Shown: piece by piece, positions 36,371 through 62,110 of the stretch
How the letters are laid out: every line of letters starts with the position of its first letter
How positions within the stretch are numbered: position 1 is the stretch's first letter
NCBI GenBank assembly: GCA_010405405.1
Contig: MU004235.1
Location: 1,192,538-1,256,537, forward strand
Reading direction: 5' to 3'
Length of the DNA stretch: 64,000 bases
DNA from: Microthyrium microscopicum
Lineage: Eukaryota
Notes under the pieces: generated by a model
The model's database searches: none
What the model was told of the DNA's origin: nothing
What the model saw: the letters and a program-made list of their open reading frames with translations, nothing else
Translations under genes and position numbers: made by a program

Positions 36371-36491
36371 CGTGGTTGTTAGTAAATGCCTATATTATTG
36401 CAACCGTGTCCTCGCCACCAATATATATATATTTTTAATAATTCTACCATCATTGCAATCACCGTTTTTTCCTCTATCGATTCTATAAATT

Positions 36492-39400
36492 ATGCCTCCC
36501 ATTAGAAGTACGCGTCGTGGAGGAGGGTCTCATAGAGATAACCCAATTTCTACACAGACCAGGCGTACCTCTCTTCGGCAACAACAGCAGCAAAGGTAGA
36601 TTTATCTCTATAATAATAAAGAGTCTATATTTATGTATCTATAGCAATACCACAACCACGACAGATCCCGCGAATACCTCAAGTAGGATTCAACATGAGC
36701 CTAACAATGCCGAACCATCAGGTCCTTCACAACCAGCGGCGACGACAACACCACGGCAGAGCCCAAACTCGGCCAAAAAAAAGCTCACTGTGATACTTAA
36801 ATGTATTCGAGATCAGAAGATGTCAATGAGATCGTTTCTTCTATCGTGGGCTGGCCAAAAGGATAGTCATAGCAAGATTGTCCTTGATAACGACAAGTAT
36901 GCCAACGTTATCGGTCGCCGTACGCTCTTGAAGGATGTTATAGAACAGTTATCAAGTGATGGGATTATGCCAGAGTATCACACTGATTCTAGACTATGGA
37001 CAGAGTTTCGCGCCCTCGCAAAACTTACAGGTTTCAACCGCTTCAGTAGTAGAGTAGACGGTACGAACATCGACTTCAAGAAAGCCATTAAGAAGATGAG
37101 GAACACTGCACCTATTTGGACAGCCTTCCTTCATAAACTTATGCGCAATCGGGACCACAAGACATACAAACGGAGTGACAAGCCGGGATGGAAGCTCATG
37201 TATATGATCACAGCAATCATTCTTCATCGGCGGAGTAGAGAGACAAATAACTATCTGGCAGCGACGCTTGGTGTCTATTTGCTCGGGTCGGGTGTGAAGA
37301 GACGGGTTATGGACTTGCTAGCAGCTCTTGGAGTATGTACTGGTTATAAGACTGCACTAAGGCATATGAAGAAGGTTTCGAGACGGGCCTTGGTATGTAA
37401 CGGTACTATGCTTAGTATTGAACATGAGATCTTGCAAGATCTTTGAACATGTTGCAAGATCTTTGCACATCTTATAACATCTTCGCACATGTTGCAAGAT
37501 CTTTGCACATCTTATAAGATCTTTGAAAATCTTAAGTTCATAACCTTGAAAGACCTTATGCATTGCTAACGCCCAATATATAGAGAAACATTAGACGACG
37601 CGCACTAAACCGTCGGGCTGTCCTATGTTACGACAACATGAACTTTGCATCTCGCAAGCGCAACGAGATAGTAGGCAATACTGCAAGTATGGCGGCCGTT
37701 ACTACTGCTATTATCGCGATCTGTCCATCCTTACCTCCAGGAGGACTAACACAAGATATGCACGATCCAACAAAGGAGTTCGACTGGAAATCAATACAGG
37801 AAGGCCCATTAGTAAAGGCCGATGGCCAAGGAGGTGAACATGTCAAAACCATTAGCCGGTGCCTTATCGTGGACGCTTTGAAACGCGGCATTCCGGATAT
37901 CATCAAACCTTGGATTGCAAAGCATAAAAAGGATAAACACTGGCCTGGCATGCCAGACATTGATATACTTGCACCACACAAGACAGAGTTTGATCAGCTC
38001 GGCGCTATCATGGAGAACGAGGGAACAACAGATGGTACTTACCGAGTACACGATGAAATCTTCTTACGACATTTCGGCTTCCCAAAACCTCCAATCAATG
38101 ATGCAGGAGACGTGGCCTCATCATCCGATATCACAGCGTCTGTTCCATCCTCTCCACCTAATTCTGGACCAGACGCCTCTTCATCTAGTGTGGCCTATTC
38201 GTCTTCTGGCCGAACGTGCAGCGGGAGTTCATCCGTCCATCATATCTCTAGCCAGGACGGATCTGACGTAGATATGTCTGAGAATGCATCCCCGTCTAGC
38301 AGCGGCCCTGAAGACAATAACCACAACAATAACCACAACAACGAGTGGATTGATGTTGAAGACGATAACGCAAGCGAGTTTGATGATAGTGAAATAGGAG
38401 AGGCGTCTGACAAAGAAGGCAGCACAGACATTGAGTCTATTAGCGACACAAGTGCGTCTCCTAATCCTGGACGCGGTATTCCTCCAGTAGATTCCGTACC
38501 AGCATCGTCATCCAGCATCTTGGGTACAGTTAGCGATGAAAACTCTACTGATGGTTCACAAGCGTTGGATCCAAGTGCCAGGATCTTCGGAAAGAGGCTG
38601 TTTCTTACCCATGGTGATCAGTTAAGCACAAAGATCAACCGCTCTATCAAGGCCGAGGCATTCAATGAAACACAACCGTACGATTCGAGGAAGTTCCTTC
38701 ATCCGGTTCCTGGGTGGTTCCATATATACATGAACTACTTCTTCCACATTGTTCGAACCCATTGGGATTCCTCCGAGGTCGATACACCGGCTCCACATTC
38801 TATTATGCACGACGTTAGTGTATGGGGACGAAGCTGCAGAAAGCGCGACAATGCCCAAACCCATCAGGTTATTCCTGTCTTGATACAAGGATTTAGTAGT
38901 AGAGTCCTGGCGTTGTTTTTGCGGAGTCTGGACCGGAAAGGTCACTGCCCTGGGCGTGTTGATGATTCATTCTTTGCCGTCCCAGAACTACTCAAATCCT
39001 GTATCAATAGGTTATCCATGGAACAGTTCGACGAGATCATTGAAGATGTCCGTCAAACAGCCTTCACGAGAGAAGCATGGGACGGGCGCCCAGATGGGAG
39101 TGATGATATCGAGTTCCGAACCATGTGCCGGTACTTGCAAGAGATTGAGTTGCTCTTAACTATGCGATATGCCCTTCGATATGGCGATATTGGACTTTTG
39201 CGCCTCCTGGTTGATCCCCTAACCATTCACTTTTATGGCACTGGTCAGAACAACTATGGGGATGAGATGCTATGGCTCAGGTGGAACTTATCTGATGTGA
39301 ATACTCCTGAACTTCAAAGGTCTATCCTGGCCTCGAGCTTAGTCAACTGGGAAGGCCGTAAGAACTCCTTTAAGCCTATGGATCTAGGACTGGAGCATTT

Positions 39401-39920
39401 GAATGGCAACTGCAGTAGAGACATGAAGTCGTTTGGTAACTCGACTCACGACGTTGAGGCAACATTCAACAGAGTCTGCCTCTGTAATACGTACATGCGT
39501 CATTTACAAGACGCATTTGCGCGTGCGTTCGTGCGCAAGGCCAGTAACAAGCATACCAACGCTAGTGCGGAGCATGATATATTCTTGTTATGCCAGAATC
39601 TGATCAAAGATGGCCTTGCGGAGTCTCGACCCCAGTCCGCAATCGAGAACTACGGCCCATATTATGACTCGCCAGATGTAAAGAGGATAGGACTTGACAA
39701 GCTTGACATCAAAGCCGAGTCTTTCAATCGCAAAACCACTATCAGGCAAGATCATATGGGAAACAACATCACAACCAGGCCTATTGACATTCTTGACCAA
39801 GACGTTGATAGTAACGACTTGGATGTACGAGAAGAGGTTGCGATGGAGGAGACCATGGGCGATGTATTGTTTGACGGAGATGATCCTGGCGCATTCGAAG
39901 CCATGGAAGTTGATTTGTAA
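36492..39920 (+). CDS. Academ/DUF6589-like DDE transposase, ~1062 aa (exons 36492-36595, 36645-37392, 37584-39920)
   Basis: In-frame splicing at GT-AG sites; motifs G.YL..SG.KRRV.D.LA.LG.C..Y, YDNMNF, ENEGTTDG, HGDQLS, PVPGWFHIYMN, GDIG, NY..E, LVN..G....P.DLGLEHLN. These match the D-D-E pattern I recognise from DUF6589/Academ proteins. Confidence 0.8.
37421..37533. repeat. Perfectly 10-bp-periodic array (~11 units, core A(G/C)AT(C/G)TT) inside transposase intron 2
   Basis: gatcttgcaa gatctttgaa catgttgcaa gatctttgca catcttataa catcttcgca catgttgcaa gatctttgca catcttataa gatctttgaa aatctt. Confidence 0.92.
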
Positions 39921-39983: not shown

Positions 39984-40066
39984 ATGTGATAGGATCTTAT
40001 CTGTTGTGATATAATCTGATTAATGTTAGAAAATGTTAGATGATGTGAGATGATGTTAGCCAATAG
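39984..40066 (+). promoter_or_regulatory. Phased WT(C/G)T array + CCAAT cassette (copy 1)
   Basis: About eight ~10-bp-spaced atgt/atct/ttgt motifs ending in gatgttagCCAATag. Confidence 0.65.
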
Positions 40067-41084: not shown

Positions 41085-41362
41085 GTGGGTATCAACGGCG
41101 CTGTATATTGCGTCTTACGCTGGCCATTAACGCCAACTCGGTGGGATCGATTGCTCGGGTATCGAAGTCGTCGATTTGTAGACAGCGTAGCTGGCGCGCT
41201 GCGCTAGTCAGCAATGCTAGTTCTGTCGGGTCGATCGGCTGTATATTGGCTTCATCGCAGGGCGGGTGAACAGCGCGGCTGGCGCGCTGCAGTAACCATC
41301 AATGCCAGTTCTGTGGGGTCGATTGGCTGTATCTTGACTCCATCGTAGGGCAGGTGAAGAGC
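41085..41362. repeat. Diverged tandem array, ~88-bp unit, ~3 copies
   Basis: acagcg(t/c)(a/g)gctggcgcgctgc...aatgc(t/c)agttctgt(c/g)gggtcgat(c/t)ggctgtat at 41182 and 41270, with a weaker copy upstream. Confidence 0.75.
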
Positions 41363-41869
41363 ACAATTGGGTGTCTTTGGTTCTGTTGATTGTCGAAGTT
41401 GTTTTGCTAGCCTCTGTGTTAATTCTTTTAACTTCTTGCTGTATAAACATTCAGCGGGAAGCTATGGCAGCCGGAAGTAGCAAGAAGAGTGCTATTGGAG
41501 AAGTAAACATGGTGAAGTTTGAGAGTGTTCTGAGCATTGTCTGAGAAGGAAAGAGGATAGGCGAGAAGAGTAATGTGAGTGAAGCAAATGGAAAGTTATA
41601 ACCAAATAACGCACTTGCTAGCTTGCTCATCCTTTTCTTTTAGCAAGATCTTCACCTTCCTAATGTTTAGGTACTACGTATCGGTGTAACCTAGACCGCG
41701 ACCACCAATTGCCCTACGCATTGCTCCCGACTCGGTGGCAGTTCTCTCTAATTACCGAATAGTCGTTGGTGACGTTTATATATATATGTTGCCGAGGGAG
41801 GGAGCCGCGGTGGCATGTAGGCGGATGGCGGAGTAGATCCGGTGGGCCTGTTAGACGTTGGACGTTCAC

Positions 41870-43480
41870 TTCTTGCCAAGGTCGTTGTTAAAGCGAGATG
41901 CTAGCTGGCTCTCTTGGGTATTACTCTCTCTGAACAACCGACGGGTAGTTTCGAGGTTCGTTGTTTCTTGTGATAGATAGACCTGGAAGGCACATGTACC
42001 GTTCGAGGCACCCGTTCGAAGACCGCCTACGTAGCAAGGTAATGACTCCAGAACCTTACTGAAGTAAAGGTCGATGAGCATGCTGTTTATGTACATTTGC
42101 GTCGATCGGCAAGAAAGACTGCACCTGGGTCTAATCATGAGTGTTGATATGAATGATCATGACAGGAGATAGAGAGAACCTTACTAAAGTAGAGTTCGAT
42201 GAGCATGCTGTTCATGTGTTTGCGATTGATCGGCAAGAAAGAGCGTACGTAGGTCTAAATCTGGGCTGTTAACATGACTATTCATGTCAATCGATAAACA
42301 GGGAAGGAAACTGACCGGTAAATGTCCGTGTGGATTTGAACTCTGGTGATGCTAGATCCAGTGGCCGTAGCTCATATGCCGCTTCGTAGTGTGATATAAG
42401 CAAGGAATCAGGGAGGGTTTGATAACTGTGGTTTCCTCTACATCTAACAGGATATTCGCGAGTCATAAGGTCATAGCATTGCCAGCTGCTTTGGTTGCTG
42501 CAATTACTGGGGAATCGGGCAGTGCATGCCTACCGTGGAAAGGAAGAGGTAATCGTAGCGGTTCGCGTGTTCTCTCGCACCGCCGTTTATGAAGAATGTT
42601 CTTTGCCGCTTGCTCCTCATAGCGGTCACGGTTCGGACGAGGTTGAGGAAGGATAGGGCCGCAGTAAGGATCTGTACTTGAGACATGTATGTAATCCTCC
42701 CAACGTAGATGCATCATCTACCTCTATGGGTCTCTTTGGGAGGGTTAGTCTGTGCAAGAGTACCTTCAGCCTTGGATGCGTCTTCTACCTCGTCTTGGCC
42801 TATTTGGAAGTACTTCCTGGAGAAGAGATAGAGGTAGAAGATGCATCTACGAGCTTAGAGGCGACGTATCCGGTACGAGCATTGATAATAGAACTGCTAA
42901 GCACTTTGGCTTGCCCTACACAGGAAGAAGTACGGCAGTGGCCCACCTGGATGGGACGTTGATCTGCCCCCTACGGAACCATGATTAGTACGGATTGTCT
43001 GAAGTGGTAGGCATAATCCCATCGTTTTTTCATACTTATTCTACATGCCTCTCGACACCGCTTATATTTCACTTCTTCTATCACTCTGGTATCTGCCACC
43101 GCTTCCCACCCACGTGTATTGCCGTTGTCCTCCAGTCGGATTACGTTGATTGAAGCCAAAGTCCTAGTTCAAGTGTGTCCCGTGCTCTACTTCTGTATTG
43201 TTGCATAACGTGTGTTCCACGTTGGGCGAAAAGATGATAGAGCCAATGTTGGATAGTGACTGTCTTCCTCGTAGATGGTTTCGATATATCGTGCGAGATG
43301 TGGACAGGGAAAGGACCGATGCCAGAGCGATAGAGGTTGTGGGGAAGTATAGAACGAATATAGGTTATGATGTGAATGCGCGACAGGTACCTAGGATTTT
43401 AGCAAGTGCTTAGCAAGATTATATAATGGAGACTTCGCGCGTAATTTGGGTTTGTCTTACCTGGCAGGAAATATGCTCTT
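41870..43480 (-). pseudogene. Probable degenerate multi-exon cargo gene
   Basis: Minus-strand intron-like signals (e.g. gtatga...tactaat...tag at 43035-42971) flanking protein-like frames interrupted by TAG/TGA stops; bounds approximate. Confidence 0.3.
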
Positions 43481-43610
43481 TGAGGAGCTGTTTCCTAGCG
43501 TCCAGAACGAATGGGAATTGTGATTGTGGGTTGTTGGTAATTGTGGATTGTTGTTATCGGTAGACTGCCGGTCAGTTGGGTTGGTAGTAAGGTCGGTTTT
43601 ATTTTCGTCT

Positions 43611-43660
43611 GATATGATGCGATCTGATGTTGGAACTTGTTAGAAGATCTTAGCCAATAG
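43611..43660 (+). promoter_or_regulatory. Phased array + CCAAT cassette (copy 2)
   Basis: gatgttggaa cttgttagaa gatcttagCCAATag. Confidence 0.6.
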
Positions 43661-44199
43661 AATGCCAGGAATGGTTCTTTACCTTGGTAGTACGCAATAC
43701 AGAGATTTTGACTTACTCTCTTGCGGAGTTTACTATAGAATATCGACTTGACTGAGGCAGGACTACCTAACAATAACTAGAATGAGTGTGAGTAGGTATA
43801 AGCTAGCGGATAATTCGGTACGTATGACATTGGAGATTCCATCATAATTATTTTGTATATAGCTGTCTAAGGCTTGGAGTTAGTAGAGAACAATAAAGCG
43901 ACGAGAGAGATCCCGACTTACAGTCAAAGCGTTAGAGCTATTCCTTGATTTATGCCCAACTTGTCGTTATGCCGGAAAAGAATATGTTATTGAGCCAGTG
44001 CTGGATGCGGTTGTATGTCTTGTGGCCGCATGTTCTTCCTTGGGTTTTGGTTTCGGGCTCATTCGCGTAAGCTGAACGAGTTGCAAATGCTTGTATATTA
44101 CTTAGTCGTTGCAATGTTCAGGTCTGCTGCACTTCCGGCCCGTCGATCTCATCCTGGCGATCGATTGTTATGCAACCGGCGTAGCTTGTTGGGACAATC

Positions 44200-45190
44200 A
44201 AGGCCAATGTTCGACTCACTAGCTCTAGCAGTCGAACGTTGCGTAGCTTGCGAAGTTGGTGTACTTGGCTAGGCCAGAATGGTTTGCCCCAAGCCCGTCA
44301 TTCTCGCTCTGGTGGTAGAAGGTTGCGAGCTTACGAAGTTGGTGTACTTGGCTAGGCCACAATGGTTTGCCCCAAGCCCGTCATTCTCGCTCTGGTGGTG
44401 GAAGGTTGCGAGCTTGCGAAGTTGGTGTACTTGGCTGAGCCAGGAATGGTTTGCCCCAAGCCCGTCATTCTCGCTCTGGTGGTGGAAGGTTGCGAGCTTG
44501 CGAAGTTGGTGTACTTGGCTGAGCCAGGAATGGTTTGCCCCAAGCCCGTCATTCTCGCTCTGGTGGTGGAAGGTTGCGAGCTTGCGAAGTTGGTGTACTT
44601 GGCTGAGCCAGGAATGGTTTGCCCCAAGCCCGTCATTCTCGCTCTGGTGGTGGAAGGTTGCGTAGCTAGCGAAGCCGCTACAGTTGGGTGGGTGGCTAGC
44701 ATGACAGCGCTGGTTTGTTCCAAGCCTGTCACCCTCCTTCCAGTGGTTGATTCGCTATGTCGCTGGCGAAGCCGTTGTAGCTGGGTAGGCGGCTAGCATG
44801 ACAGCAATGGTTTGTTCCAAGCCTGTCACTCTCGCTCTAGTGGTCGAACGTTGCGTCGCTGGCGAAGCCTTGACAGACGGCTGTCGCGTCGAAGCACCAC
44901 AGCCATGGTTTGTTCCAAGCCTGTCACTCTCGCTCTAGTGGTCGAACGTTGCGTTGCTGGCGAAGCCTTGACAGACGGCTGTCGCGTCGAAGCACCATAG
45001 CCATGGTTGTTTTAGGTCTGTCTGTCAAGGCTCTAGTGGTCGAACGTTGCGTTGCTGGCGAAGCCTTGACAGACGGCTGTCGCGTCGAAGCACCACAGCC
45101 ATGGTTGTTCCAGGTCTGTCTGTCAAGGCTCTAGTGGTCGAACGTTGCGTTGCTGGCGAAGCCTTGACAGACGGCTGTCGCGTCGAAGCG
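44200..45190. repeat. Tandem array of ~10-11 related units (spacings 83, 84, 84, 84, 96, 97, 98, 98, 98 bp)
   Basis: Anchor (a)tggtt(t)g at 44279, 44362, 44446, 44530, 44614, 44710, 44807, 44905, 45003, 45101. Confidence 0.95.
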
Positions 45191-45489
45191 CGTCGCGAAG
45201 CCATTGGAAGGGGTGAATGTGGCGAGTTTGTACTGGTTGCCAGTTGGTGAGAATATATTGGCCGTTGCCGTACTACCAGGAATAAAGGCCTGGTATGTTG
45301 TTAGTCGTAAACCAAGATGGTCAGCCAAGGAGGTACTGCTTACATCAAGACTTCCAACTGCTCAAAGCCTACAGTCAGATAAGTTGTAGTGGAGCTAGAG
45401 GTGACATAGAATTGGTGTCTTTCTCTCATAGAGAGAGGTTGGAACTTCAATGTTGGAAGTGACGTCTGGAGCGTTCTACGAGGGTTGTC

Positions 45490-45580
45490 TTATATAGTAA
45501 CCCTTAAGTTTGAAGGCATCCTATTGGTCCACATCTTCGAATATCTTCTAATATCTCGTCAGAATATGAAAGATCTATAA
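45490..45580 (-). promoter_or_regulatory. Phased array + CCAAT + TATA cassette (copy 3)
   Basis: Minus strand: agatct..attct..agatat..agatat..agatgtggaCCAATag, then ctatataa ~25 bp downstream. Confidence 0.65.
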
Positions 45581-47544
45581 TTAAATAGCAATAACTTCCC
45601 TAGACTGTGCCTTTCTAACTTCTCAACGCAAGTGAGATGTACTAATCTCTACTACTCTGACCGTCAGCGCCTTGTTTAAATGTAGCATACTATATCCAAG
45701 CAGCTCCGAGTCTCTTGCTTGGACCTAGGTTGTTGTAGTGGATTAAGGCGTTGGGACTAGAGTCTGCTAGATCATATCGAGTAGATGCGACTTTGATTGG
45801 TCTACATGCTGTTGTTGCTTTCGGTGGAGGTATGGCCACGTCTGAGTAGAGATGTTTCTCGATAGAGCAGTAGATGACACATTCGAACTTTTGAGGTTTC
45901 AAAGTCTGAACGATTAGAAGCGATATTAAAGCCCGGAGTAACTCTGTATCCGATGGAAGGAAGCCAACAAATCGTGTAAATTTAACCGCTTGAGCTTTTC
46001 AATGTTTTACTTCTTCTACTTCTTCTTCTTTAACACACGTCTATACAGAATATTAGCAGAAGAGTCAACAAACAACCAATATACTTTACTAAATACTCCC
46101 ATATCACAAGACAAGTCGTCCTCGCATCTTTTGGCCTTGACATCAAGCTTTACACCCTCTTCAACCTATTATGATGAGTTCAAAGACGTGCCGAATGGTG
46201 GCATATCGACCCGTCATGATAATCTAGCACAGAGCACGCGTGTTTACCAAGCAAGTCGTTGAAGTGGCATTCATGCTTCAGTACCTCCTTTGAGTGCTGC
46301 GGGAAACCCTTTAGAACTCAATCATGGTGCAGTCCTCCCGTAAAAGCTCCCGCCAGGTCTTGGAACAACATCTGTTGACGAGCTCGAAAAGTCGTCAACA
46401 GAGGCTGCGAGCTCGTTAGGGATTTGACCAGGTATCAGTGTAGCGATTGGATTTGACAAGCTCGCAAGAATATTGCCGCGAGCCATCTATCATTTTGTCT
46501 CGCGAATACTAGGGGCGGTCTCCATTAGTTACATCATTTCAATATCAGAACTAAGGACTTACAGGCATCCTGAGCATATCTCCACACCTCGATCTACTCG
46601 CAGGCACCGTGAATAGCATCACGTTCTGGACGCTATGATCCAAAGACTCCGTCTGCGTGTGAAGCACTTGCTACGTCGCAACACCGTTAGCCACAGTTTT
46701 GAGAACGGCTGCGCCAAAAGGGCCAGCGTCCAAAAACCAATTCCATGATAGATTGCAGAACTTCTTCCCGTGAACTAATGACAACAAATGTATCTTCAAT
46801 CATTGTCAGCGAGTTAAGGGATGCGCCATAGTGCACATGCTTCACTTTGCTATATCTGGGATTGTCAAGGGGGAAAGGATAAGCGTACCGTCAGCTATTG
46901 CTTAGTTCATGGCGTACAAGATTGAACGGGGCTTAGATAGGCATGCTATAGCGATTGAATTCGACCACAAAGATCTTGTCTTCAGCCATTAAGCTACAAG
47001 TAGTACTGGTTTAGTATGGAGACTCAATGTTTCTAAGTCTCTAGATTGTAACAGAGTTAGTATACAGAAAGACTGCGTTTAACATATTAGAAGGATGATA
47101 CTTACCTTAAACTCTAAACCTTAAATATTGCAACATCGATATCCATTCCTAGAGAACTAGAGCTTGCTAGTTTATAAGATAGTGCTATGATCTCGCGTTA
47201 AAGAATACTTAAATAAGAAGATGTAGCTTTCAAGAAGTTCTGTACTACAGTTCAACATAAAGAAAAGATAGAGACGGATTTGGTATACAAGTGTTTAACC
47301 ACGTAAGTGATTCAGAATATAAGTTTTCAGAATAGAAAGAAACATAGCCAACGAAGGGGCTAGCAAACGGCAATATAATTGACTGCGTAATCTGCTATCA
47401 TAACTCTAGGGGATAAGGATGTTTGGGAAGAAATAAACGATACGCGCTGCTGGGCTGCTTACCGCATTACTTAGACTTTAATGAAGATGTACCTTTGAAT
47501 ACAGCGCCAAAGAAAAAGGTAGTCCTATTGTCGTTGGGTACTCC

Positions 47545-48065
47545 GCCGCATTTCTTGATGGACCATGACAAGGAAGTATTTGGCAGCGGTACTGTGAAAA
47601 ACGAGCGCGAGTAAGGATGGGCGGTGTGCCGTGTCTCTTGATGGTCTATAACAAGGAAGTATTTGGCAGCGGTACTGAGAAAAACGAGCGCGAGTAAGGA
47701 TGGGCGGTGTGCCGTATCTCTTGATGGTCTATGACGAGGAAATATTCGGCGGCGGTACTAAGAAAAACAAGCGCGAGTAAGGATGGATGATATGCCGTGT
47801 CTCTTGATGTTTAAGAACAGGAAGATATTTGGTAGCGGTCTGAAGGAAAAACGAGTGCGAGTTGTAGTATGCGATATGCGGTGTCTCTTAATGTTTAAGA
47901 GCAGGAAGATATTTGGTAGCGGTCTGAAGGAAAAACGAGTGCGAGTTGTAGTATGCGATATGCGGTGTCTCTTAATGTTTAAGAGCAGGAAGATATTTGG
48001 TAGCGGTCTGAAGGAAAAACGAGTACGAGTTGTAGTATGCGATATGCGGTGTTTCTTAATGGTTG
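47545..48065. repeat. Tandem array, 83-84-bp unit, 6 copies in two subtypes
   Basis: Anchor (a/g)gcggt at 47585, 47668, 47751, 47834, 47918, 48002. Confidence 0.95.
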
Positions 48066-48239
48066 ATAAGTTAGCAACAACTTGCAGTGGGTACTAAGAC
48101 ATAGGAAATATACGTATCATTGGCTACTGAAATGCCAGTTAATGGCCCATAATAAGAGCTTCGTTTAAGGTGATCTTTACTACGCTAAGGAGTATATATC
48201 CGTAGTTGACATGTTGGTTTACTGTTAGGCATTGAGGAG

Positions 48240-49205
48240 GTTTTGGCGGCGGTGTTTGGGAGGAAGATGTGGTCTTGTATTGTGTAAATGATACTGTTAG
48301 AAGAACGCTGGCGAGCGGACTTTTGGCGGCAATCTTTGGGGAGCAAGATGTGTTCTTGTATTATGTAAATGATGCTGTTAGAAGAAGGCTGGCGAGCGGA
48401 CTTTTGGCGGCAGTCTTTGGGGAGCAAGATGTGGTCTTGTATTGTGTAAATGATACTGTTAGAAGAACGCTGGCGAGCGGACTTTTGGCGGCAATCTTTG
48501 GGGAGCAAGATGTGTTCTTATATTGTGTAAATGATGCTGTTGGAAGAAGGCTAGCGAGCGGATATTTGGCGACAGTCTTTGGGGAGGGATATGATAGTGT
48601 TCAGCGTAGCGAATCGTGTTCTTGGAATGAAGCTGGCGAGCGGATTTTGGCGACAGTCTTTGGGGAGGGATATGATAGTGTTCAGCGTAGCGAATCGTGT
48701 TCTTGGAATGAAGCTGGCGAGCGGATTTTGGCGACAGTCTTTGGGGAGGGATATGACAGTGTTCAGCGTAGCGAATCGTGTTCTTGGAATGAAGCTGGCG
48801 AGCGGATTTTGGCGACAGTCTTTGGGGAGGGATATGATAGTGTTCAGCGTAGCGAATCGTGTTCTTGGAATGAAGCTGGCGAGCAGATTTTTGGCGATAG
48901 TCTTTGGGGAGGGATGTATGGTATTCAGCGCGCGAATCGTGTTCTTGGAATGAAGCTGGCGAGCGGATTTTTGGCGATAGTCTTTGGGGAGGGATGTATG
49001 GTATTCAGCGCGCGAATCGTGTTCTTGGAATGAAGCTGGCGAGCGGATTTTTGGCGATAGTCTTTGGGGAGGGATGTATGGTATTCAGCGCGCGAATCGT
49101 GTTCTTGGAATGAAGCTGGCAAGCGGATTTTTGGCGGTAGTCTTTGGGGAGGGATATATGGTATTCAGCGTGCGAATCGTGCTCTTGGAATGAAGCTGGC
49201 GAGTA
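48240..49205. repeat. Tandem array, 80-82-bp unit, 12 copies in three blocks
   Basis: Anchor gcgag at 48311, 48392, 48473, 48554, 48636, 48717, 48798, 48879, 48959, 49039, 49119 (gcaag), 49199. Confidence 0.97.
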
Positions 49206-49693
49206 GACTTTGAGAAAGAGAATGCTTGTACCAAGTTGAGGATGCCGCTTAATAGCTGATGTTGCGATAAGACTTTTGAGTGCGTGTAAGGCTTTGGAAA
49301 GGATTATGCTGTGTGCTCGAATCTAGTGTACTGGTATGTGATGAAATCGGCTTTGCGACTTTGCCTTTGGCTTTTGAGGAAACATCGGTGCCATCTTGTG
49401 ATGGGCGGGAATATGCGTTGCGATATGAATTGGTTGTTGCTTTGGACGTAGAAGATATCAACATTGGCCAGCTTTGTAAGATAAAGAATGTGGGGATGCC
49501 AATGGCCAGAGAGATCGCGGCATAGACGATGAGGAAGTTATGTGTAAGCCGTAGGTGTGAGCGACGCTGATTATGCCTAGTCTTAAACCGTGGTTGTTGA
49601 GGTGAATTGTATCGTGATGGAAGGTATGAATGTTGAAGTTAGATGCATCAGCATGAAGTTGAAAAGACTTTGAAGTTACGATGCGATGTTAGG

Positions 49694-49790
49694 TATTATA
49701 CGCTAATGATTAAGTCTCGCTAAGAGCTGTTTGATTGGACTAACATCTTTGCACAACTTGAAACATTATTTAAGAACGTCCCATATTATC
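49694..49790 (-). promoter_or_regulatory. Phased array + CCAAT + TATA-like cassette (copy 4)
   Basis: Minus strand: gttctta aataatgttt caagttgtgc aaagatgttagtCCAATca, then tataat ~35 bp downstream. Confidence 0.65.
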
Positions 49791-50782
49791 TAAAAGTAGT
49801 TAAGCGTATCTTGGTCTGCCCGTTCGGAGTAGAACCTTAAATCTAGCTTTGCTCAAATACTACTGGCTTCGTAACTTATTGCTACACCTTTCGCCTTTAT
49901 GATCTGGTTTCATTCTACAGACAATATACGGGTACTTAGAATCATCTTCTCTTTCGTCACAGACATAATGATTATAAGGTGAGGTTAATGACAAGCTCTA
50001 GAGTATATCTTCAAATGTTGGGTTACCTGTCAAGCCAAAGCAAGCCATTGATGTGCCAACGAGAGTAATAGTACTGCTAGTTTCTAGTCCGGGGCTCTAA
50101 GCAATTATGATTGGAGCAGATCTACAAAACAGTTCGACTTGTGGACTGATGTGGACTAGCTAGTATTCAGATGTGCAACGCACTGTCATCCCATTCTGAA
50201 GGAAAGAGATTTTGGAAATCCCTTTTTGACTTTGCAACGTCGACTTCTGAAAGCATTGCTGCTTAGCAGCAGTTTAAGACATTCTGATCGCAAGCTAGCA
50301 AGGGACTTTACTATATCATTGGATGGCTCATGTCCATTACGTTATTTGAGACATGATCTACGGCTTAGCTCTATCGCTACTGGATGTAGTCAGCCGAAAC
50401 GAGGAATGTTCGACTAGGATATGATCCACTAACATGGCTTGCATGCCGCTATGCCGATCAGGCTCCATAGATAAAGACGAGATGAGCTAAAAACAGGGAT
50501 TACCTGATCTGAATTCATGAGCGCGGCATGGTTAGTCGTAGATCGCCTATCCCGTTTATGGTTAAGAAGCACATTATCACTCGTACTCTGAGAGTACTTG
50601 TAGAGTCGTAGAATTTGGCAACGGCTCACAGGCATGTAAGCCTACCAGCGAGCGGCGACGTAGTGTCAAAGACGATGGAAATTCTCTAAGTCTGGTCTCA
50701 AAAGATTGAACAAGAATCATTATTTATCTATCTTTGGGCAAACAATACATATCCTGTAGGAAATCATTGTCAGGGTCGTTGG

Positions 50783-52447
50783 TCAAACCAAACCCTTTCG
50801 AATAGCTGCATCTCGAGTTTCCACTCCTTTGATTGCCATCTCGTGTTGTTCGGTCTTCCATGACTTCCATTTTTCCTCACCAGCAACAAGGCAAGCAATT
50901 TGCCGAGATGTGAATTCGCTGAAGTCCTCCTTGGCCTTTCTGGTCTTCGCGACATTGGGACGTGGCTTAGGCGCCGATTGCTTGTTGTCCTCATGAAACG
51001 AGCAAGTCTCATGACATCCTTCCATAACACAATTTGTACAGGCTCCCTTGAACAGAACGCTTCCGTCCTCGACTTTCATAATTATGCAGGTAGTGCATGC
51101 CAATGTTGGTTCTTCACTATTCTTTGTTTGGGATGGACCAAGACTTCGAATTTCAGAGCAACGCTGACAAGAGTATTCAACCCGACCCGTGGCAAGGCAA
51201 TATGCCATCGCGGCATATAGTGAAGGTAGTGTCTTTAGAATATTTGCAAGCTGAGGAGTGGAACGTTTATGCCATTGTAGACCTCGTACCGGTTGGTATT
51301 TGAGGAGTGCTTGAAGCATTGTCAGATCAGTGTCATTGGGGATCCATTTTCGGAGCAGGTGGAAGAGTAGTTGCACAACTCGGACATCGGTAGTTTTGGC
51401 GCGGTCATTAAAGATAGACACTTTCATGTCACCGAACATATATTGCTTCTCCAAGAACCGTAGAACCGGGACCCGAAGGTCCGCTTTCGGCGTCGACTTC
51501 TCGCTCGTGGATGATTTAGAGGATGGTGATGGCTTCTTGACCATGACTTGAGTTGGAGAAGTTGTTGGACTTTTAGGTGATGCCGTAGTCTTTGTGTTAT
51601 TTCGCGACGGAGTTATGGAGCCTGTATTGGTTGTGTCACCTTGGGTACTTCGACGCACGCGTGCTTGACTATGAGCAGCCTCCTCTGCGATAGGTTCCAA
51701 GTTGCTCGCTCGGCGTTTTTGGCGTGCCTCTTTCTGCTGTTTTGCTGTTTCTACTTCGCTACTAGCTATGCGGTACCTTTCCTGCCAAATCCGCGAATTT
51801 CCTTCATGGGCGCTATGTAGAAGCATTGCATTATCACGGCGGCGAGTTGCTGCAGTTACTGGTGATTCTTCGCGATCTGGGGTTGGCCGCACTTCTTCTC
51901 CTTTTAGAGGAGGAATAAATCCATATTTGAAACCTCTTTCTATCGCAGCAGCATCCTCTTTACTACGAACTGGCATCAATGGATGATCATAATCATAATG
52001 GCTCTCGTCCTTTTCGACTGATTGTTTGATGGAAGTGGAAGCCTGGTTTCTGTCGCTTTGCATGGATAACGCGGCGAGTTGATTCGCCGTTTTGCTGGTA
52101 GGAGTGACTGCGGCTAGCTGGGCCTGGTTAGGCTTTTGAGGAGTTTGTGGCGATCGTGCCGACATTTCTTGACGAGGATGTTTTTCGCCGCGAAATTGGG
52201 AATTGGTAGAAGGTAGAGATGTCTGCGGTGATCGGATTGGAGTGGTTTGACGGCTCACTGAACGTGCTTGGTTTGGATTCGTAGACTGCTTAATTGGAGT
52301 GGCTTGTCGGGTAGATTCTGGTGACGAGGATTTGTCTGAGTTCAGGGTGATTGGGTCTTTAGCAGAGCTTCCAGGTGTTTTCGGTGTGCTTGAAGCAGTT
52401 GTAGCATGCTTGATGTCAGAGCTTGTAGATGCACGCTTTGGAGCCAT
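50783..52447 (-). CDS. 554-aa protein: long S/T/P/K/Q-rich disordered region plus C-terminal Cys cluster (DUF3716-like putative Zn-binding domain)
   Basis: Intact ORF; TGRVEYSCQRC...CTTC...FKGACTNC....CHETCSF. Confidence 0.75.
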   Translation of the reverse strand: MAPKRASTSSDIKHATTASSTPKTPGSSAKDPITLNSDKSSSPESTRQATPIKQSTNPNQARSVSRQTTPIRSPQTSLPSTNSQFRGEKHPRQEMSARSPQTPQKPNQAQLAAVTPTSKTANQLAALSMQSDRNQASTSIKQSVEKDESHYDYDHPLMPVRSKEDAAAIERGFKYGFIPPLKGEEVRPTPDREESPVTAATRRRDNAMLLHSAHEGNSRIWQERYRIASSEVETAKQQKEARQKRRASNLEPIAEEAAHSQARVRRSTQGDTTNTGSITPSRNNTKTTASPKSPTTSPTQVMVKKPSPSSKSSTSEKSTPKADLRVPVLRFLEKQYMFGDMKVSIFNDRAKTTDVRVVQLLFHLLRKWIPNDTDLTMLQALLKYQPVRGLQWHKRSTPQLANILKTLPSLYAAMAYCLATGRVEYSCQRCSEIRSLGPSQTKNSEEPTLACTTCIIMKVEDGSVLFKGACTNCVMEGCHETCSFHEDNKQSAPKPRPNVAKTRKAKEDFSEFTSRQIACLVAGEEKWKSWKTEQHEMAIKGVETRDAAIRKGLV

Positions 52448-52904
52448 TGTTATGAGTTTCAGTAGAAGAAATTGTGTCTTGTAGTTATTTGAAGTATTCT
52501 TTAGATGTAGGAGTACAAAGAAGAAGAAGAAGTGGAGAAGTTGATGGATCGAGAGATTAAATAGACCACAAACGCAGGCTCCTACTGTCGAGCCTAAAAT
52601 TGCTCTATCGTGAGAGGTTACTGCTTCGCTTGATTACTGAAGCTTCAGCCTTCAAGGCTTCAGAGCTTCAAAGCGCTCAGCCAGTCCGGTCCTCCCTTGC
52701 TACATGTAGACGCATCTCACGATTATTACCATCTTACCTACTCCATCAGTGAATTGCTGACTGCCATGTTGTAATGGGCACATCCCGAAGGAATAAAGAC
52801 GCCTAACTATGTGGTTGATATCCGATAGCATTCTGGGCAGCCGGCGCCAACAACGTCCGAGCCCTTCCGGATTGCGTAGTTTTGGTTTTGTGAGTGCTAT
52901 GACT

Positions 52905-53250
52905 GTTGGCGCAAAGAACACTGTTTCATCGTCGGAATGGGCGATGAGGAGGATGATGCGCTTATTGCGGAGGATAGGAGGTACGGTGGATGTTTCATGG
53001 GCGCAAAGAACATTGCTTCATTGGCGGGACGGGCGATGAGTAGCACGATGCGCTTCTTTCGGAGGGCGGGACATGTAATGGATGTTTTCATAACGCAAAG
53101 AGCATTGCTTCATTGGCGGGACGGGCGATGAGGAGCACGATGCGCTTGTTTCGGAGGGTGGGACATCTGATGGATGTTTCCATAACGCGAAGAGCATTGC
53201 GTTGTTGGCGGGATAGGCGATGAGGAGCACGATGCGCTTGTTTCGGAGGG
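52905..53250. repeat. Tandem array, 92-bp unit, ~4 copies
   Basis: Anchor (g/a)ggcgatgag at 52939, 53031, 53123, 53215. Confidence 0.92.
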
Positions 53251-53639
53251 TAGGAGACGCCCCATGATTCTTCCCAAAGCCGTGCAGAGTCTGTGTTTTT
53301 GTAACGATATACTGTTGTAGTTGTTGGCTCGCCGGATACACTTGCGGTGGTTATTGCGGGCTGGTTGGTGGTTCCTATCGGCCGAGGAAAAGATGGTATA
53401 GAGGGTAGTGGTACTCGGATCAGATAGATGTTTCAAGGGCGCGAAGAGAACAGTAGAAGTACTGGCAAGGGTATAGAATTCGAATATCAGCGCAAGAAAT
53501 AAGAGAGGCAGTTTATAAGATAGAGGACAGGAGATGTGGGGGCAAAGACTGGTAAGGATTAGAAGTTGATGCGGTATTAAAAATTAATGGGTTGGGAACT
53601 AGATAAGATATGGACTATATGATCAGAACTAAGGTAAAT

Positions 53640-53692
53640 GATTGGCTCAGAAGTAATAACATCATCTAAGATCTTGAAAGATTGTTACATAA
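53640..53692 (-). promoter_or_regulatory. Phased array + CCAAT cassette (copy 5)
   Basis: Minus strand: atgtaacaat ctttcaagat cttagatgat gttattactt ctgagCCAATca. Confidence 0.6.
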
Positions 53693-54344
53693 CTCCGTTC
53701 ATCTAACCAGATTCAGTAAGATCAATATTAGCGTATGGATCTCTTACTACAACCTTCTGAATTCAAGTAACCGCTACTCCTTAATTCTCACACCAGCATT
53801 TATACAATATAAAATGTCTATACTTGTTTCACACACTATGTCCCTATTAGCCATCACACTACAACAGACAAGCCTACCAGACGGAACCACCATCTCATAG
53901 AAACACCTTCAATCACAAATAACTCCTCATCTGATTCACTATCAGTATAATCACGACGTAGAATATCCTTGCTATAAAAGGACTGGATCGCTCTGCTAAC
54001 TCCTTTTACAGATCAATCAAATAGAAACGAACCGTCTCCTCTCTCCAGCCTACTATACATCCCTCCGACCTACCACATATCCAATCTAGGAATACCTTGC
54101 ACCCTAAAACAAGAGCTTTATCATCTAGACAATCGGTATCACTACGTTACACGCAAGAAGCCTATCACGGCATCGATTTGCATATCTCTATCAGCAAAAC
54201 AACGAATCCATAATAGGTGCCGCCCTCAACCACCAGCCGGCCACCAGCCGTACATGAGATCAACCATCAAGTCGACTATCATCTCTTACATCAATGCCAA
54301 CCGCGTTCAATCACCAGCCGGCTCATTGCCCCTTCCGGACCGCT

Positions 54345-54590
54345 TGCCAAATATTCCGTCAATTTCCAGAAGTTGGTAACGATTACACAAAATACATATC
54401 TGGCAGTACTTCCATGCAAAGTCCCTTCACTAAATATCTTGTCAATGTCTCGATGCTAGCGGTGATTTTACAAAATACGCCACTGGCAATGTGCCCATCA
54501 AAAGCCCAATCGTCAAATTCTTCATCAGTCACTGAATATTAGAGGCGACAACGCGAAATACAAAAGCGGCAACACCTCCCATTGGAAGCC
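54345..54590. repeat. Highly diverged tandem array, ~84-bp unit, ~3 copies
   Basis: Recurrent aaat..tca..aaatac..ggca..cca skeleton at ~84-bp spacing. Confidence 0.45.
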
Positions 54591-55329
54591 ATGGTTTGCA
54601 CACTATGTCAACCTTTGAATATTAAGGACAATGACACAGAATCTACACCTGGCATTACTTGCTATCCGGAACCGCTGCCATGGAGGGTGTCTCATCCAAC
54701 CAATATTGGCGGTAATTGTACAGAATCTCTTTTCAAGTGGCACTTCTCAGCAAAAGAGCCATATCAGTTGAAATTACTTTTAGTAATTGTTCGCAATAAC
54801 TGGACAGCAGAATCAAAGAGTATAATTTGTAAGGCCCGTTCTCCACTCCAGTTAATGCATTGTTTATCTCCATCAAGTCAATAATATCTCTTGTAGTTTG
54901 GTAGCCGTGGATTACAGAAATCTTAGCTTTCTTCAGACGAAGACATCCCATGGCATGTTCTTACGTACAAACTATACATGGTCTTGTTACCATCTGCTTC
55001 ATATTATCATGTAAGATGTAGCGCTTCGTCAAAGTCCAAAACTACATAATCACATTGGACGATAATACGGAGATTTGATATATTCGACGATGTCACGATC
55101 ATAAAGAACAATGTTAGAAAGATTCAAGTTCATAAGCCAGTGTTATCTTCCTTGGCTACAACCGACAAGTAAGCAAAGCCTTCAAAGTACTACTATACAG
55201 GATCTCGTTGGTTATCACCTCCCACTCGCATTACCCTCAGCGACCAAACTGAAGCTGAATCCAGAGCCACCAGACATTAACGGCAGCCAGAGCTAGCGGA
55301 TATCATCCGACTGTAATCACGTCCAACAA

Positions 55330-57949: not shown

Positions 57950-57995
57950 GCTAGGTTGATTTTCTTAGGACATGTTGGAAGATGTTAACCAATAG
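57950..57995 (+). promoter_or_regulatory. Phased array + CCAAT cassette (copy 6)
   Basis: tttcttagga catgttggaa gatgttaaCCAATag. Confidence 0.6.
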
Positions 57996-60084: not shown

Positions 60085-60300
60085 CTTCAAAAGTCCAATG
60101 GAAAGCTGACGTTTGTAAAGGGTGTATGAAGCTGATGTGTGTGTCGTTGAAGAGCTTCAAAATGTGGGGCAAGGGGAGGTTTTATCATGGCAACACTCCT
60201 ATCCAACCCGCACTCTTACGGAAACGAAGCCCAGTCAGTTTGGGCTATTGTTCCCTATTGAAGCCATCCCCAAGGACAACATCTTATTGTTCTTTCCTGA

Positions 60301-60352
60301 AGTGTGAAGTTCTGGCAAATTGTGCAAAGTTCTGCAAAGATGTTAGCCAATC
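60301..60352 (+). promoter_or_regulatory. Phased array + CCAAT cassette (copy 7)
   Basis: gttctggcaa attgtgcaaa gttctgcaaa gatgttagCCAATca. Confidence 0.65.
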
Positions 60353-62040: not shown

Positions 62041-62110
62041 ATGATATATTTGAATTTGTGGGATTATCTGATTTGATCTTAAATGATCTTGGTTGATGTT
62101 AACCAATCAG
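62041..62110 (+). promoter_or_regulatory. Phased array + CCAAT cassette (copy 8)
   Basis: atgatatatt tgaatttgtg ggattatctg atttgatctt aaatgatctt ggttgatgtt aaCCAATcag. Confidence 0.65.

Follow-up and report, generated by a model that had tools for sequence, protein, structure and literature searches.

In a 64,000-nucleotide stretch of the genome of Microthyrium microscopicum (the window), several tandem arrays with units of similar length stand close together, and the locus raises the question of what these arrays are. An earlier note on this DNA had interpreted them as promoter-driven non-coding multimeric transcripts or as protein-binding platforms with a length constraint, an interpretation that our analysis partly supports. 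We consider it rather probable that the arrays are non-coding, fast-turnover spacer minisatellites in the much enlarged interior of a single large locus of mobile-element type.

Unrelated tandem arrays with units of similar length

Tandem Repeats Finder (TRF) gave 23 rows for the whole window. All rows with a period of at least 25 bp fall inside 37.4-53.3 kb, and the five rows outside this interval have periods of 6-23 bp. A crude control, from one genome, is given by the 45 kb of the window outside 36-55 kb, where TRF reports no period of 25 bp or more. The arrays, given without strand, are as follows.

41182..41362, array A41, 88 bp x 2.1 (TRF), spacing 88
42050..42286, array A42, 125 bp x 1.9 (TRF)
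44234..45189, array A44, 84-bp units grading into related 96-98-bp units
47545..48063, array A47, 83- and 84-bp sub-types, about six units (TRF row 47553-48063)
48241..49203, array A48, 81-, 82- and 80-bp units, about twelve, in three sub-types
52910..53255, array A52, 92 bp x 3.8 (TRF), spacings 92, 92, 92
54290..54800, decayed array, 83-bp periodicity by autocorrelation

The arrays that the earlier note had listed near 44, 47.5, 48.2 and 52.9 kb are real and were recovered by TRF. Its array at 41.1 kb does have an 88-bp unit, but starts at 41182 rather than 41085 and contains two copies only; its list omits the 125-bp array at 42050-42286. The degenerate array that it had placed at 54.3 kb gives no TRF row, even at a score of 30, but is evident from autocorrelation, with a self-match of 40.4% at lag 83 (z 5.8) and of 36.5% at lag 166 (z 4.2).

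Unit length shifts within single arrays. A44 consists of a first part at 44234-44674 (84 x 5.2, 96% matches by TRF) and a second at 44614-45189 (98 x 5.9), with measured spacings of 83, 84, 84 and 84 followed by 97, 96, 98, 98 and 98. Spacings in A47 are 83, 83, 83, 84 and 84; in A48, which TRF reports as two rows (48241-48586, 81 x 4.3, and 48540-49203, 80 x 8.2, 95%), they are 81, 81, 81, 82, 81, 81, 81, 80, 80 and 80 over 48.2-49.2 kb. When the units were compared with one another in circular, two-strand alignments (n=90), z exceeded 4 in five comparisons, each pairing sub-types from within a single array (44a/44b, 47a/47b and 48a/b/c). The best cross-family z was only 3.5 and no motif is common to the arrays, in agreement with the earlier statement that they share no sequence. 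The window thus holds six unrelated families of 80-98-bp units, one family of 125-bp units and a decayed 83-bp periodicity; unit length lies between 80 and 98 bp in six of the seven independent array families.

The arrays are non-coding and not generally RNA-structured

Most array spacings break the reading frame, as had been claimed, the exceptions being 81 and 84, which keep it. Across the window and its relatives, the unit length is divisible by 3 in seven of the 25 arrays with units of at least 60 bp, which is the chance level. A search of the protein collection with the longest array ORF, a 265-codon open frame on the + strand of A48, gave no match. Of the ten ATG ORFs in the array zone (41.2-54.9 kb), a single one is a recorded protein, a minus-strand ORF of 90 aa (41866-42138) that only clips the edge of A42; the other nine, among them all ORFs that fall inside arrays, have no record. 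On the frame breaks inside arrays, the chance level of divisible units and the unmatched longest ORF, we rejected protein-coding tandem repeats, and the earlier view that these are not protein repeats holds.

Folding of the units, a check proposed with the transcript reading, spoke against that reading: 17 of 18 unit folds were no better than shuffles (z -1.2 to +1.7). The sole fold with a z below -2 is a long + strand hairpin in one A48 sub-type (z -3.08, 0 of 200 shuffles). A search of Rfam gave no match at the gathering score. Known structured RNA families, including snoRNA- and miRNA-like units, were rejected on these two results. Together, these data establish that the arrays are non-coding and not generally RNA-structured.

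The arrays lie between the convergent genes of a transposon-type locus

The genes of the locus are as follows.

36493..39920, + strand, DUF6589 gene (Pfam DUF6589, E 2.8e-62; ATG at 36493)
50783..52447, - strand, orphan gene P0001, 554 aa, with a C-terminal Cys cluster and no relatives found
58576..60084, - strand, third gene, small and conserved, with a Cys-cluster C-terminus (start codon at 60084 read by eye)
62212..64000, - strand, C-terminal part of a RecQ-like helicase gene (Pfam Helicase_C), continuing past the window end

The DUF6589 gene has two main coding blocks (to ~37446 and 37638-39920), both joined in a database protein, P0003 (1062 aa), that is 100% identical to its product. The AlphaFold model of a homologue, P0049, has, like the Hermes and P-element transposases, a helical insertion in an RNase-H-type core. 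In a structure search with this model, these two transposases made up the top eight entries (Hermes, Z 8.6-10.1, 279-313 residues aligned, rmsd 6.6-7.6; P element, Z 8.3-8.4), and the next unrelated row had a Z of 4.5. The motifs that surround the presumed catalytic D, D and E show conservation. Given the modeled fold, the DUF6589 protein is read here as the putative DDE transposase of the element.

The helicase is 33% identical (E 5e-39), including a region outside the helicase core, to a helicase that neighbors DUF6589 in a related locus, L014, and whose nearest solved structures are RecQ/WRN (E 2e-19). The third gene was found in eight non-redundant relatives (L004, L005, L007, L010, L012, L013, L021 and L024; tblastn/tblastx, E 5e-18 to 4e-6), and its Cys pattern is invariant in the alignment; two of the eight pieces scanned match DUF3716 weakly. 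P0001 also matches DUF3716 weakly (E 0.0016), failing Pfam's cut-off; its only match among 5.8 billion protein clusters was itself, and tblastn over the related loci gave none.

The DUF6589 and helicase genes are convergent, with the arrays between them, and the interval that separates them is 22 kb in the window as against 0.05-6 kb in relatives. The locus spans at least 27.5 kb (36.5 kb to beyond 64 kb). On its left side lies a gap of 10 N (36171-36180) that is flanked by a 93-bp duplication. No element ends, inverted repeats or target duplication came to light, the sequence stopping inside or near the element in the window and in the contigs alike; L005 does have a 43-bp inverted repeat, but this is internal and lacks a clean duplication. 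Judged from the protein collection only, the window copy appears to have no second copy beside it in the protein set of its genome. This architecture fits a helicase-encoding cut-and-paste DNA transposon, for which the locus is a candidate, and the earlier guess of a transposon was right in kind: the gene set recurs and the fold is transposase-like.

Arrays recur in distant relatives of the element

Relatives of the DUF6589 gene were found in 32 metagenome loci at 28-50% identity, about 22 of them distinct once overlaps were removed. DUF6589 clusters in the protein atlas carry the labels Basidiomycota, Mollusca and Mucoromycota, on few members. A convergent DEAD/Helicase_C ORF is present in six of the ten ORF-scanned loci (L005, L010, L011, L014, L015 and L024), and the window helicase matched ten non-redundant related loci by tblastn.

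Arrays with units of at least 60 bp occur in 10 of the 32 loci. The earlier note had suggested looking for arrays in homologous elements, and this check was positive: eight of the eleven non-redundant related loci of at least 6 kb carry them, with units of 60-197 bp, while L003, L011 and L014 do not. Similarity between the relatives' DNA and the window is confined to coding sequence, the array sequences being unrelated. A sensitive comparison of the ~4-kb modules gave nothing clearly above shuffles except one 190-bp low-complexity match. Among the 48 non-redundant arrays with a period of at least 25 bp, none has a period of 45-59 bp and 14 have a period of 78-98 bp, seven of these outside the window. 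The relatives' arrays start 175-461 bp past the DUF6589 match in L005, L007, L015 and L029, and 3.2 kb past it in L010. Recurrence at an equivalent position across lineages, like the 80-98-bp length of most families in the window, would also be expected under constraint. The tandem arrays thus lie inside the locus and recur in related loci; they are a trait of the element family, seen in distant relatives.

ATTGG cassettes with phased 10-mers

A second kind of repeat in the locus is a cassette made of ATTGG followed by A[C/G]ATC-type words in 10-bp phase. The phased features are as follows.

37429..37533, + strand, phased-word cluster, ~11 copies in 10-bp phase, in the gap between the DUF6589 coding blocks
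40020..40064, - strand, cassette 1, ATTGG with phased 10-mers, 100 bp past the DUF6589 stop codon
43610..43658, - strand, cassette 2
45523..45563, + strand, cassette 3, ATTGG with phased words, 334 bp from array edge 45189
49734..49790, + strand, cassette 4, ATTGG with phased words, 531 bp from array edge 49203
53641..53690, + strand, cassette 5, with a longer spacer from ATTGG to the phased words, 386 bp from array edge 53255
57950..57993, - strand, cassette 6, ATTGG with phased 10-mers
60300..60351, - strand, cassette 7, 267 bp ahead of where the third gene is presumed to start
62060..62107, - strand, cassette 8, ATTGG with phased 10-mers

The cassette pattern has 11 hits in the whole window against 2.8 expected, a number reached by none of 100 shuffles, and eight of the 11 lie in 40.0-62.1 kb; all eight tight cassettes of one sequence type are inside this interval. 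The 37429..37533 cluster (TRF periods 10/20/40) contains nine phased 5-mer pairs, against 0.13 in shuffles. Relatives have equivalents made from other 10-mers, the core being AACTCCT-type in most loci, AACTTCT in L010 and AACCTAC in L013, as compared with A[C/G]ATCTT in the window. In L005 and L010 their phased clusters or arrays lie between the DUF6589 blocks; in L004, L012, L024 and L029 they immediately precede block 2. Similarly, a phased cluster stands at most 100 bp past the end of the DUF6589 ORF in L003, L005, L007, L021 and L024.

The cassettes that had been reported 300-550 bp from three arrays, and a plain CCAAT at ~48120, were confirmed, the latter as an ATTGG at 48119. For the accompanying rule, a minus-strand promoter followed by an array, there is a second and equally possible reading: with respect to known genes the cassettes take both orientations, in the window and in relatives alike, and the third-gene cassette of L005 is oriented opposite to those of L010 and the window.

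Weighing the explanations

One alternative is that the arrays and cassettes are putative protein-binding or cis-regulatory platforms of the element, bound by the small Cys-cluster protein or the transposase, which would co-evolve with its sites as reported for VANDAL/VANC in plants, and that binding geometry would constrain unit length. The cassettes are clearly non-random and family-wide, yet their 10-mers differ by lineage; the family encodes a conserved Cys-cluster protein; phased clusters lie inside 6 of the 22 array rows of relatives; for five window arrays the distance between the array start and a cassette, on its ATTGG side, is 0.33-1.1 kb; and A52 stands in the region upstream of P0001, 463-808 bp from its start codon. 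However, the cassette 10-mer is not enriched in the window arrays, with no hits in A41, A42 and A44 and four each, near background, in A47 and A48 at a lenient threshold. The arrays also lack a common motif, and the two results together count against the length-constrained platforms of the earlier note. Helical phasing of unit lengths is not significant (P 0.11 for 25 arrays, 0.056 for the 19 of at most 100 bp), and GC skew is uniform across the window arrays but mixed across those of relatives. We regard such platforms as unlikely. Quite unlikely, too, is that the arrays are transcribed from putative cassette promoters into multimeric non-coding RNA serving as small-RNA precursors, decoys or antisense to the convergent genes. 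On the minus strand a CCAAT and a TATA-like word do precede A44 and A48, a cassette directed from the DUF6589 stop towards the arrays and convergent genes is kept in the window, L005, L007, L021 and L024, and both the A48 hairpin and the genome annotators' 90-aa minus-strand model at 41866-42138 could be taken in its favor; against this, unit folds are otherwise ordinary, no family reaches the Rfam gathering score, and cassette orientation is inconsistent relative to known genes, so that the direction of any transcript cannot be inferred from it. It is very improbable that the arrays encode a repetitive protein or are assembly artefacts. Although 81- and 84-bp units are divisible by 3 and long open frames span A44 and A48, frames break within arrays (83/84, 81/82/80, 96-98, 92 and 88), open frames are found in more than one register and on either strand, as stop-poor repeats would give, and protein matches are absent. 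The duplication around the 10-N gap does indicate local assembly trouble, but the graded unit variants and sub-types are unlike collapsed or duplicated reads, and independent assemblies of relatives hold similar arrays.

The spacer-minisatellite explanation, which we prefer, would work on the following plan. A DUF6589 protein with a predicted DDE fold is encoded on the + strand, and the small Cys-cluster protein and RecQ-like helicase on the - strand; the 22-kb interior is filled by the arrays, the eight family-specific ATTGG and phased-10-mer cassettes and a few orphan genes. This interior may have grown in situ, because the eight tight cassettes of the same type are confined to 40.0-62.1 kb. 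Arrays would be born and renewed by slippage or unequal exchange in the spacer DNA of the element, for instance as it is replicated or as the gap left by excision is repaired. Indels would then move the unit length slightly within single arrays (84 to 97/98, 83 to 84, 81 to 82 to 80), and old arrays would decay where they stand, the 83-bp relic at 54.3 kb being a possible example. Similar unit length would stem from a common way of arising or from ancient common descent, rather than from a sequence-specific function.

Comparison with known systems

VANDAL21 of Arabidopsis is a DNA transposon in which non-coding, fast-evolving tandem motifs are combined with a small element-encoded anti-silencing protein, VANC. 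The locus described here likewise combines fast-evolving tandem motifs in non-coding DNA with a small element-encoded protein, but has no VANC homologue, and the candidate motif, the 10-bp phased words by CCAAT, sits in the cassettes and not in the 80-98-bp arrays. The VANDAL analogy drawn earlier is therefore better for the cassettes, with their lineage-specific 10-mers, and worse for the arrays, which we rejected as VANDAL/VANC-type targets for want of a common motif and of cassette 10-mer enrichment.

Internal tandem repeats that seed satellites are described for the transposon Tetris of Drosophila virilis (PMC4079207) and for the clam MITE DTC84 (PMC3879986). As here, short tandem arrays lie within a DNA transposon and vary among copies. 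In contrast, those elements are reported as high-copy with one array type, whereas the present element is apparently low-copy and of autonomous type, has six to seven unrelated families, and belongs to a family in which unrelated arrays recur among distant members.

KolobokH, as outlined in PMC9587614, is a fungal lineage of Kolobok with a RecQ helicase and a DDD/E transposase. The locus resembles it in its RecQ-like helicase and in a transposase model that is like P-element and hAT transposases, but some relatives are labeled molluscan. KolobokH was rejected: in the window, as in the six related loci named above, the helicase has its own gene, which is convergent with the DUF6589 gene and lies on the opposite strand.

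AcademH is the helicase-encoding lineage of Academ DNA transposons (Kojima 2020, Mob DNA 11:15, via portions of PMC10799480 and PMC10045372). These sources describe it as low-copy in Basidiomycota, Ascomycota and Mucoromycota, present in animals too, and flanked by a target duplication of 9-10 bp. The portions consulted mention no arrays, cassettes, third Cys-cluster gene or 22-kb interior, in which the present locus would differ. It shares with AcademH a transposase gene accompanied by a separate helicase gene, and may share a low copy number, the window copy appearing single by protein collection only; the atlas labels Basidiomycota, Mollusca and Mucoromycota would also fit, on few members. 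Placed by published description, the element is probably AcademH.

Tandem arrays in the window

Tandem Repeats Finder (TRF), run over the whole window, returned 23 rows, and every row with a period of at least 25 lay within 37.4-53.3 kb. The arrays reported in an earlier note are all there, although their coordinates needed correction in small part and one array, with 125-bp units, had been overlooked.

Tandem arrays detected by TRF, named by their position in kb
41182-41362: A41, 88 bp x 2.1
42050-42286: A42, 125 bp x 1.9; missing from the earlier list
44234-44674: A44, first part, 84 bp x 5.2, 96% matches
44614-45189: A44, second part, 98 bp x 5.9
47553-48063: A47, 83/84 bp x about 6
48241-48586: A48, first part, 81 bp x 4.3
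48540-49203: A48, second part, 80 bp x 8.2, 95% matches
52910-53255: A52, 92 bp x 3.8

Within the arrays, sub-types follow one another and small indels shift the unit length. The spacings between anchors are 83, 84, 84, 84 and then 97, 96, 98, 98, 98 in A44; 83, 83, 83, 84, 84 in A47; 81, 81, 81, 82, 81, 81, 81, 80, 80, 80 in A48; 92, 92, 92 in A52; and 88 in A41. A degenerate array of about 84 bp had also been proposed at 54.3 kb. It gave no TRF row; nevertheless, the periodicity, though below TRF detection, is real: shifted by 83 bp, the 54290-54800 interval matches itself at 40.4% of positions (z 5.8), and a shift of 166 bp gives 36.5% (z 4.2). This array has decayed in place.

Representative units were then compared pairwise (90 circular, two-strand comparisons). 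Only five pairs exceeded z 4, each consisting of sub-types of one array, and the best similarity across families reached z 3.5. There are therefore six unrelated array families and one relic, with units of 80-98 bp in six of these seven, which confirms the earlier claim of several arrays that resemble each other in unit length and share no sequence. Units differ by 87 transitions and 52 transversions; this is no RIP-like excess, and RIP-like mutation among units was rejected.

Coding and RNA potential of the arrays

The anchor spacings show that reading frames are interrupted inside the arrays, and the open frames that cover them fall on both strands and in several frames. Pfam returned only sub-threshold noise for these frames, and the longest, 48236-49030 (+), was matchless among the candidates scored in a collection of 5.8 billion protein clusters. 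Ten ATG ORFs from the array zone (41.2-54.9 kb) were looked up, and one is on record as protein, a 90-aa model at 41866-42138 (-) that overlaps merely the edge of A42. Furthermore, the unit length is divisible by 3 in 7 of the 25 arrays with units of at least 60 bp (window and relatives together), which is the chance level. The frame breaks, these unit lengths and the matchless longest frame bear out the view that the arrays are not protein repeats; judged from their sequence, they are non-coding.

Rfam gave no match at the gathering score, and no tRNA was found. When nine units were folded on both strands, z lay between -1.2 and +1.7 in 17 of the 18 folds. The sole outlier was unit 48307-48387 (+), an 81-bp sub-type with a hairpin of about 60 nt (z -3.08, reached by 0 of 200 shuffles), which is a lead for that A48 sub-type only. 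Folding thus revealed no general RNA structure, and the suggestion that the arrays are an RNA or guide system was not borne out by either the folds or Rfam. A promoter and terminator scan stayed at chance level; its models are bacterial and the host is a fungus.

Genes and layout of the element

An alignment-guided scan of metagenome contigs recovered 32 loci (L-numbers below) encoding relatives of the window's DUF6589 protein at 28-50% identity, about 22 of them distinct after overlap removal. The DUF6589 gene of these loci is split into two blocks. Six of the 10 loci scanned for ORFs (L005, L010, L011, L014, L015 and L024) carry a DEAD/Helicase_C gene convergent with it, and eight non-redundant loci have a small gene with an invariant pattern of Cys residues between the DUF6589 and helicase genes. 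All three genes are present in the window.

Genes of the element in the window
36493-39920, +: DUF6589 gene; a 100% identical protein is on record under a Dothideomycete source name; arrays lie downstream
58576-60084, -: small Cys-cluster gene
62212->64000, -: C-terminal part of the helicase gene, which runs past the window end

The gap between the flanking genes is 22 kb in the window versus 0.05-6 kb in the relatives. The window helicase shares 33% identity with that of L014 over 341 residues (E 5e-39), a match that extends past the generic helicase core, and the closest solved structures to the L014 helicase are RecQ and WRN (E 2e-19). Elsewhere in the window, which is fungal, Pfam identified Gti1/Pac2, Fungal_trans, flippase and ferric reductase.

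Self-blastn of the window gave neither long-range repeats nor terminal inverted repeats; short inverted matches there connect only the cassettes described below. A 43-bp inverted repeat in L005 was rejected as a terminus, being internal and without target duplication. Just upstream of the DUF6589 start codon, a near-identical 93-bp stretch (36078-36170 and 36279-36371) flanks a run of 10 N at 36171-36180; this duplication is probably a scaffolding artefact that masks the left border of the element.

Two lineage-specific genes inside the array zone, 50783-52447 (-) and 55330-56420 (-), contain weak, sub-threshold DUF3716-like Cys clusters. The first encodes an orphan protein of 554 aa (P0001) that matches only itself in the protein collection. 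P0001 and ORF 55330-55917 were rejected as paralogues of the small Cys-cluster gene, since BLASTP and profile comparison gave no significant match and sub-threshold DUF3716 matches are their sole link to it. By eye, canonical fungal intron signals (GTAAGT ... CTAAC-like ... AG) are visible at 60400-62050 (-) and 46100-46950 (-). These signals suggest further spliced genes inside the element; neither stretch has a match in the related loci.

DUF6589 resembles DDE transposases in a structural model

The AlphaFold model of P0049, a full-length DUF6589 homologue (core pLDDT 80-98), was compared with solved structures. The eight best entries were all Hermes transposase (Z 8.6-10.1 over 279-313 residues, rmsd 6.6-7.6) or P-element transposase (Z 8.3-8.4), and the row after them fell to Z 4.5. 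On this model, therefore, the preferred reading of DUF6589 is a DDE transposase carrying a helical insertion domain. It took the full-length homologue and VIA-align for the fold to surface; Foldseek alone listed the same entries with weak E-values and returned no match for a first model covering only the second coding block, and a profile search of PDB sequences likewise gave none. Taken as a whole, the locus best fits a helicase-encoding cut-and-paste transposon.

Low-complexity sequence rich in acidic residues and Ser, about 240 residues long, is inserted in the window's DUF6589 protein (residues 116-357 of the 37638-39920 ORF, at 38.1-38.6 kb); the relatives of 560-610 aa lack this insertion, which has pLDDT below 50 in the model.

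Arrays in related loci

TRF over the 32 related loci (174 kb) detected arrays with units of at least 60 bp in 10 of them. Among the 11 non-redundant loci that reach 6 kb, 8 have such arrays, and L003, L011 and L014 have none by TRF. Arrays lie 175-461 bp from the 3' side of the DUF6589 gene in L005, L007, L015 and L029 and 3.2 kb from it in L010, between the two DUF6589 blocks in L010, and upstream of the helicase gene in L005, L010 and L024. The relatives' arrays occupy places equivalent to those in the window. DNA-level similarity between the window and these loci is confined to coding sequence.

The pooled non-redundant arrays with a period of at least 25 (n=48) have periods of 25-44 (23 arrays) or 60-197 (25 arrays), with none at 45-59; periods of 78-98 account for 14, seven of which are outside the window. 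The remaining 45 kb of the window contains no row of period at least 25. Enrichment in the element is therefore clear, its size being roughly known at best from a background of 45 kb of one window. Together, these data identify the arrays as non-coding spacer DNA belonging to a single large element, and show that unrelated arrays of similar size recur at like positions in the spacers of distant relatives, a comparison that the earlier note had put forward as a check.

Phased cassettes

The earlier note had also described "phased-CCAAT cassettes". These are real, and are a sharper signal than the arrays: the pattern ATTGG (CCAAT on the opposite strand), 0-6 bases, A[C/G]ATC has 11 matches in the window versus 2.8 expected, a count reached by none of 100 shuffles, and 8 of the 11 fall within 40.0-62.1 kb. 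After each cassette ATTGG come three or four 10-bp phased words with the consensus A[C/G]ATCTTnnn.

Cassettes and pattern matches within 40.0-62.1 kb
40064, 43658, 57993, 60351, 62107, -: tight cassettes
45523, 49734, +: tight cassettes
50110, +: eighth pattern match, pattern alone
53641, +: cassette with longer spacer, found by a wider pattern only; completes the eight listed cassettes

The DUF6589 gene is interrupted between the conserved YDN and MNF, and the gap of about 190 bp holds 10-bp phased words, with a larger cluster of cassette-type words at 37429-37533. Similarly, a phased cluster or array lies between the two blocks in L005 and L010, and just upstream of the second block in L004, L012, L024 and L029. 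The 37429-37533 cluster could be an internal promoter for an N-terminally shortened protein lacking the first presumed catalytic Asp.

Relatives build an equivalent device from other words, beside CCAAT or ATTGG. Of 20 loci examined, 12 have 19-132 phased 6-mer pairs, where 1-5 would be expected. A phased cluster lies at most 100 bp past the DUF6589 ORF end in the window, L003, L005, L007, L021 and L024. In relatives, cassettes also stand upstream of the helicase and small genes in either orientation, that at the small gene of L005 differing from those in L010 and the window. In this placement, the cassettes behave like orientation-independent upstream elements. L029 (21.6 kb, GC 0.39) is AT-rich and without long ORFs around its DUF6589 match, as if degraded, and retains phased clusters and arrays of 80, 60 and 41-44 bp.

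Phased clusters occur inside 6 of the relatives' 22 array rows. In the window, a weight matrix of the 10-mers gave no match in A41, A42 or A44 and near-background numbers of matches in the other arrays, which rejects the window arrays as multimerised cassettes. Nor do the three cassettes on the + strand, taken with their arrays, qualify as diverged 4-kb segmental duplicates: the best matches are at shuffle level except for one low-complexity match of 190 bp. In an alignment of four cassette regions, homology was confined to the short motif.

Discussion

We consider it fairly probable that slippage or unequal exchange in the spacer DNA of the element creates and removes the arrays, their like unit length then reflecting a shared origin or mode of origin. 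The conserved position of the arrays and the tight clustering of unit lengths in the window locus would also suit a function, whether the arrays were protein-binding or regulatory platforms, which we regard as unlikely, or non-coding transcripts driven by the cassettes, which seems quite improbable. Against both stand the lack of a motif common to the arrays, the lack of general RNA structure and a helical phasing of unit lengths that was rejected as not significant (P 0.11). Highly improbable is that they are coding repeats or assembly artefacts, even with imperfect assembly nearby, as the 93-bp duplication at the N gap indicates.

Alongside an origin by slippage or unequal exchange, we raise an idea that we hold to be unlikely: cassettes and arrays might together be the cis-acting part of a regulatory system private to the family. 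A sequence-specific protein encoded by the element (Cys-cluster or transposase) would read the lineage-changing 10-mers, arrays beside cassettes would be bound or transcribed platforms with a constrained unit of about 80-95 bp, and the whole would amount to a fungal equivalent of the systems by which transposons counter silencing or regulate themselves. If the cassettes are indeed binding sites of an element protein, the family offers a natural series for the co-evolution of a mobile element and its cis sites. The locus deserves specialist attention chiefly for these cassettes.

Helicase-encoding fungal transposons are already known; to our knowledge, the cut-and-paste ones are barely characterised. 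The window locus and its 32 relatives provide a recognisable anatomy for them: DUF6589 transposase, small Cys-cluster protein, RecQ-like helicase, lineage-specific cassettes and spacer minisatellites. The transposase reading would assign a function to a Pfam "domain of unknown function"; in the literature searched, one paper mentions DUF6589, in passing. The features that appear to be new, as far as the literature was searched, are the resemblance of modelled DUF6589 to a transposase fold, the layout with three genes, the cassettes of phased 10-mers and CCAAT that differ between lineages, unrelated arrays of about 60-200 bp that recur across loci, and the 22-kb interior. Several unrelated arrays of like unit length can mark one large element rather than an RNA system. 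Internal tandem repeats in DNA transposons are themselves known (PMC4079207, PMC3879986).

Among known systems, KolobokH, a fungal lineage bearing RecQ according to PMC9587614, is an alternative assignment of the element. AcademH is described, in two papers, as having a transposase plus a helicase, being low-copy in fungi and animals and making 9-10-bp target duplications (PMC10799480, PMC10045372); the supplements of PMC10799480 mention neither DUF6589 nor Academ. The AcademH description matches the window element in its transposase plus helicase, and the element, whose ends lie beyond the sequence examined, probably belongs to that group.
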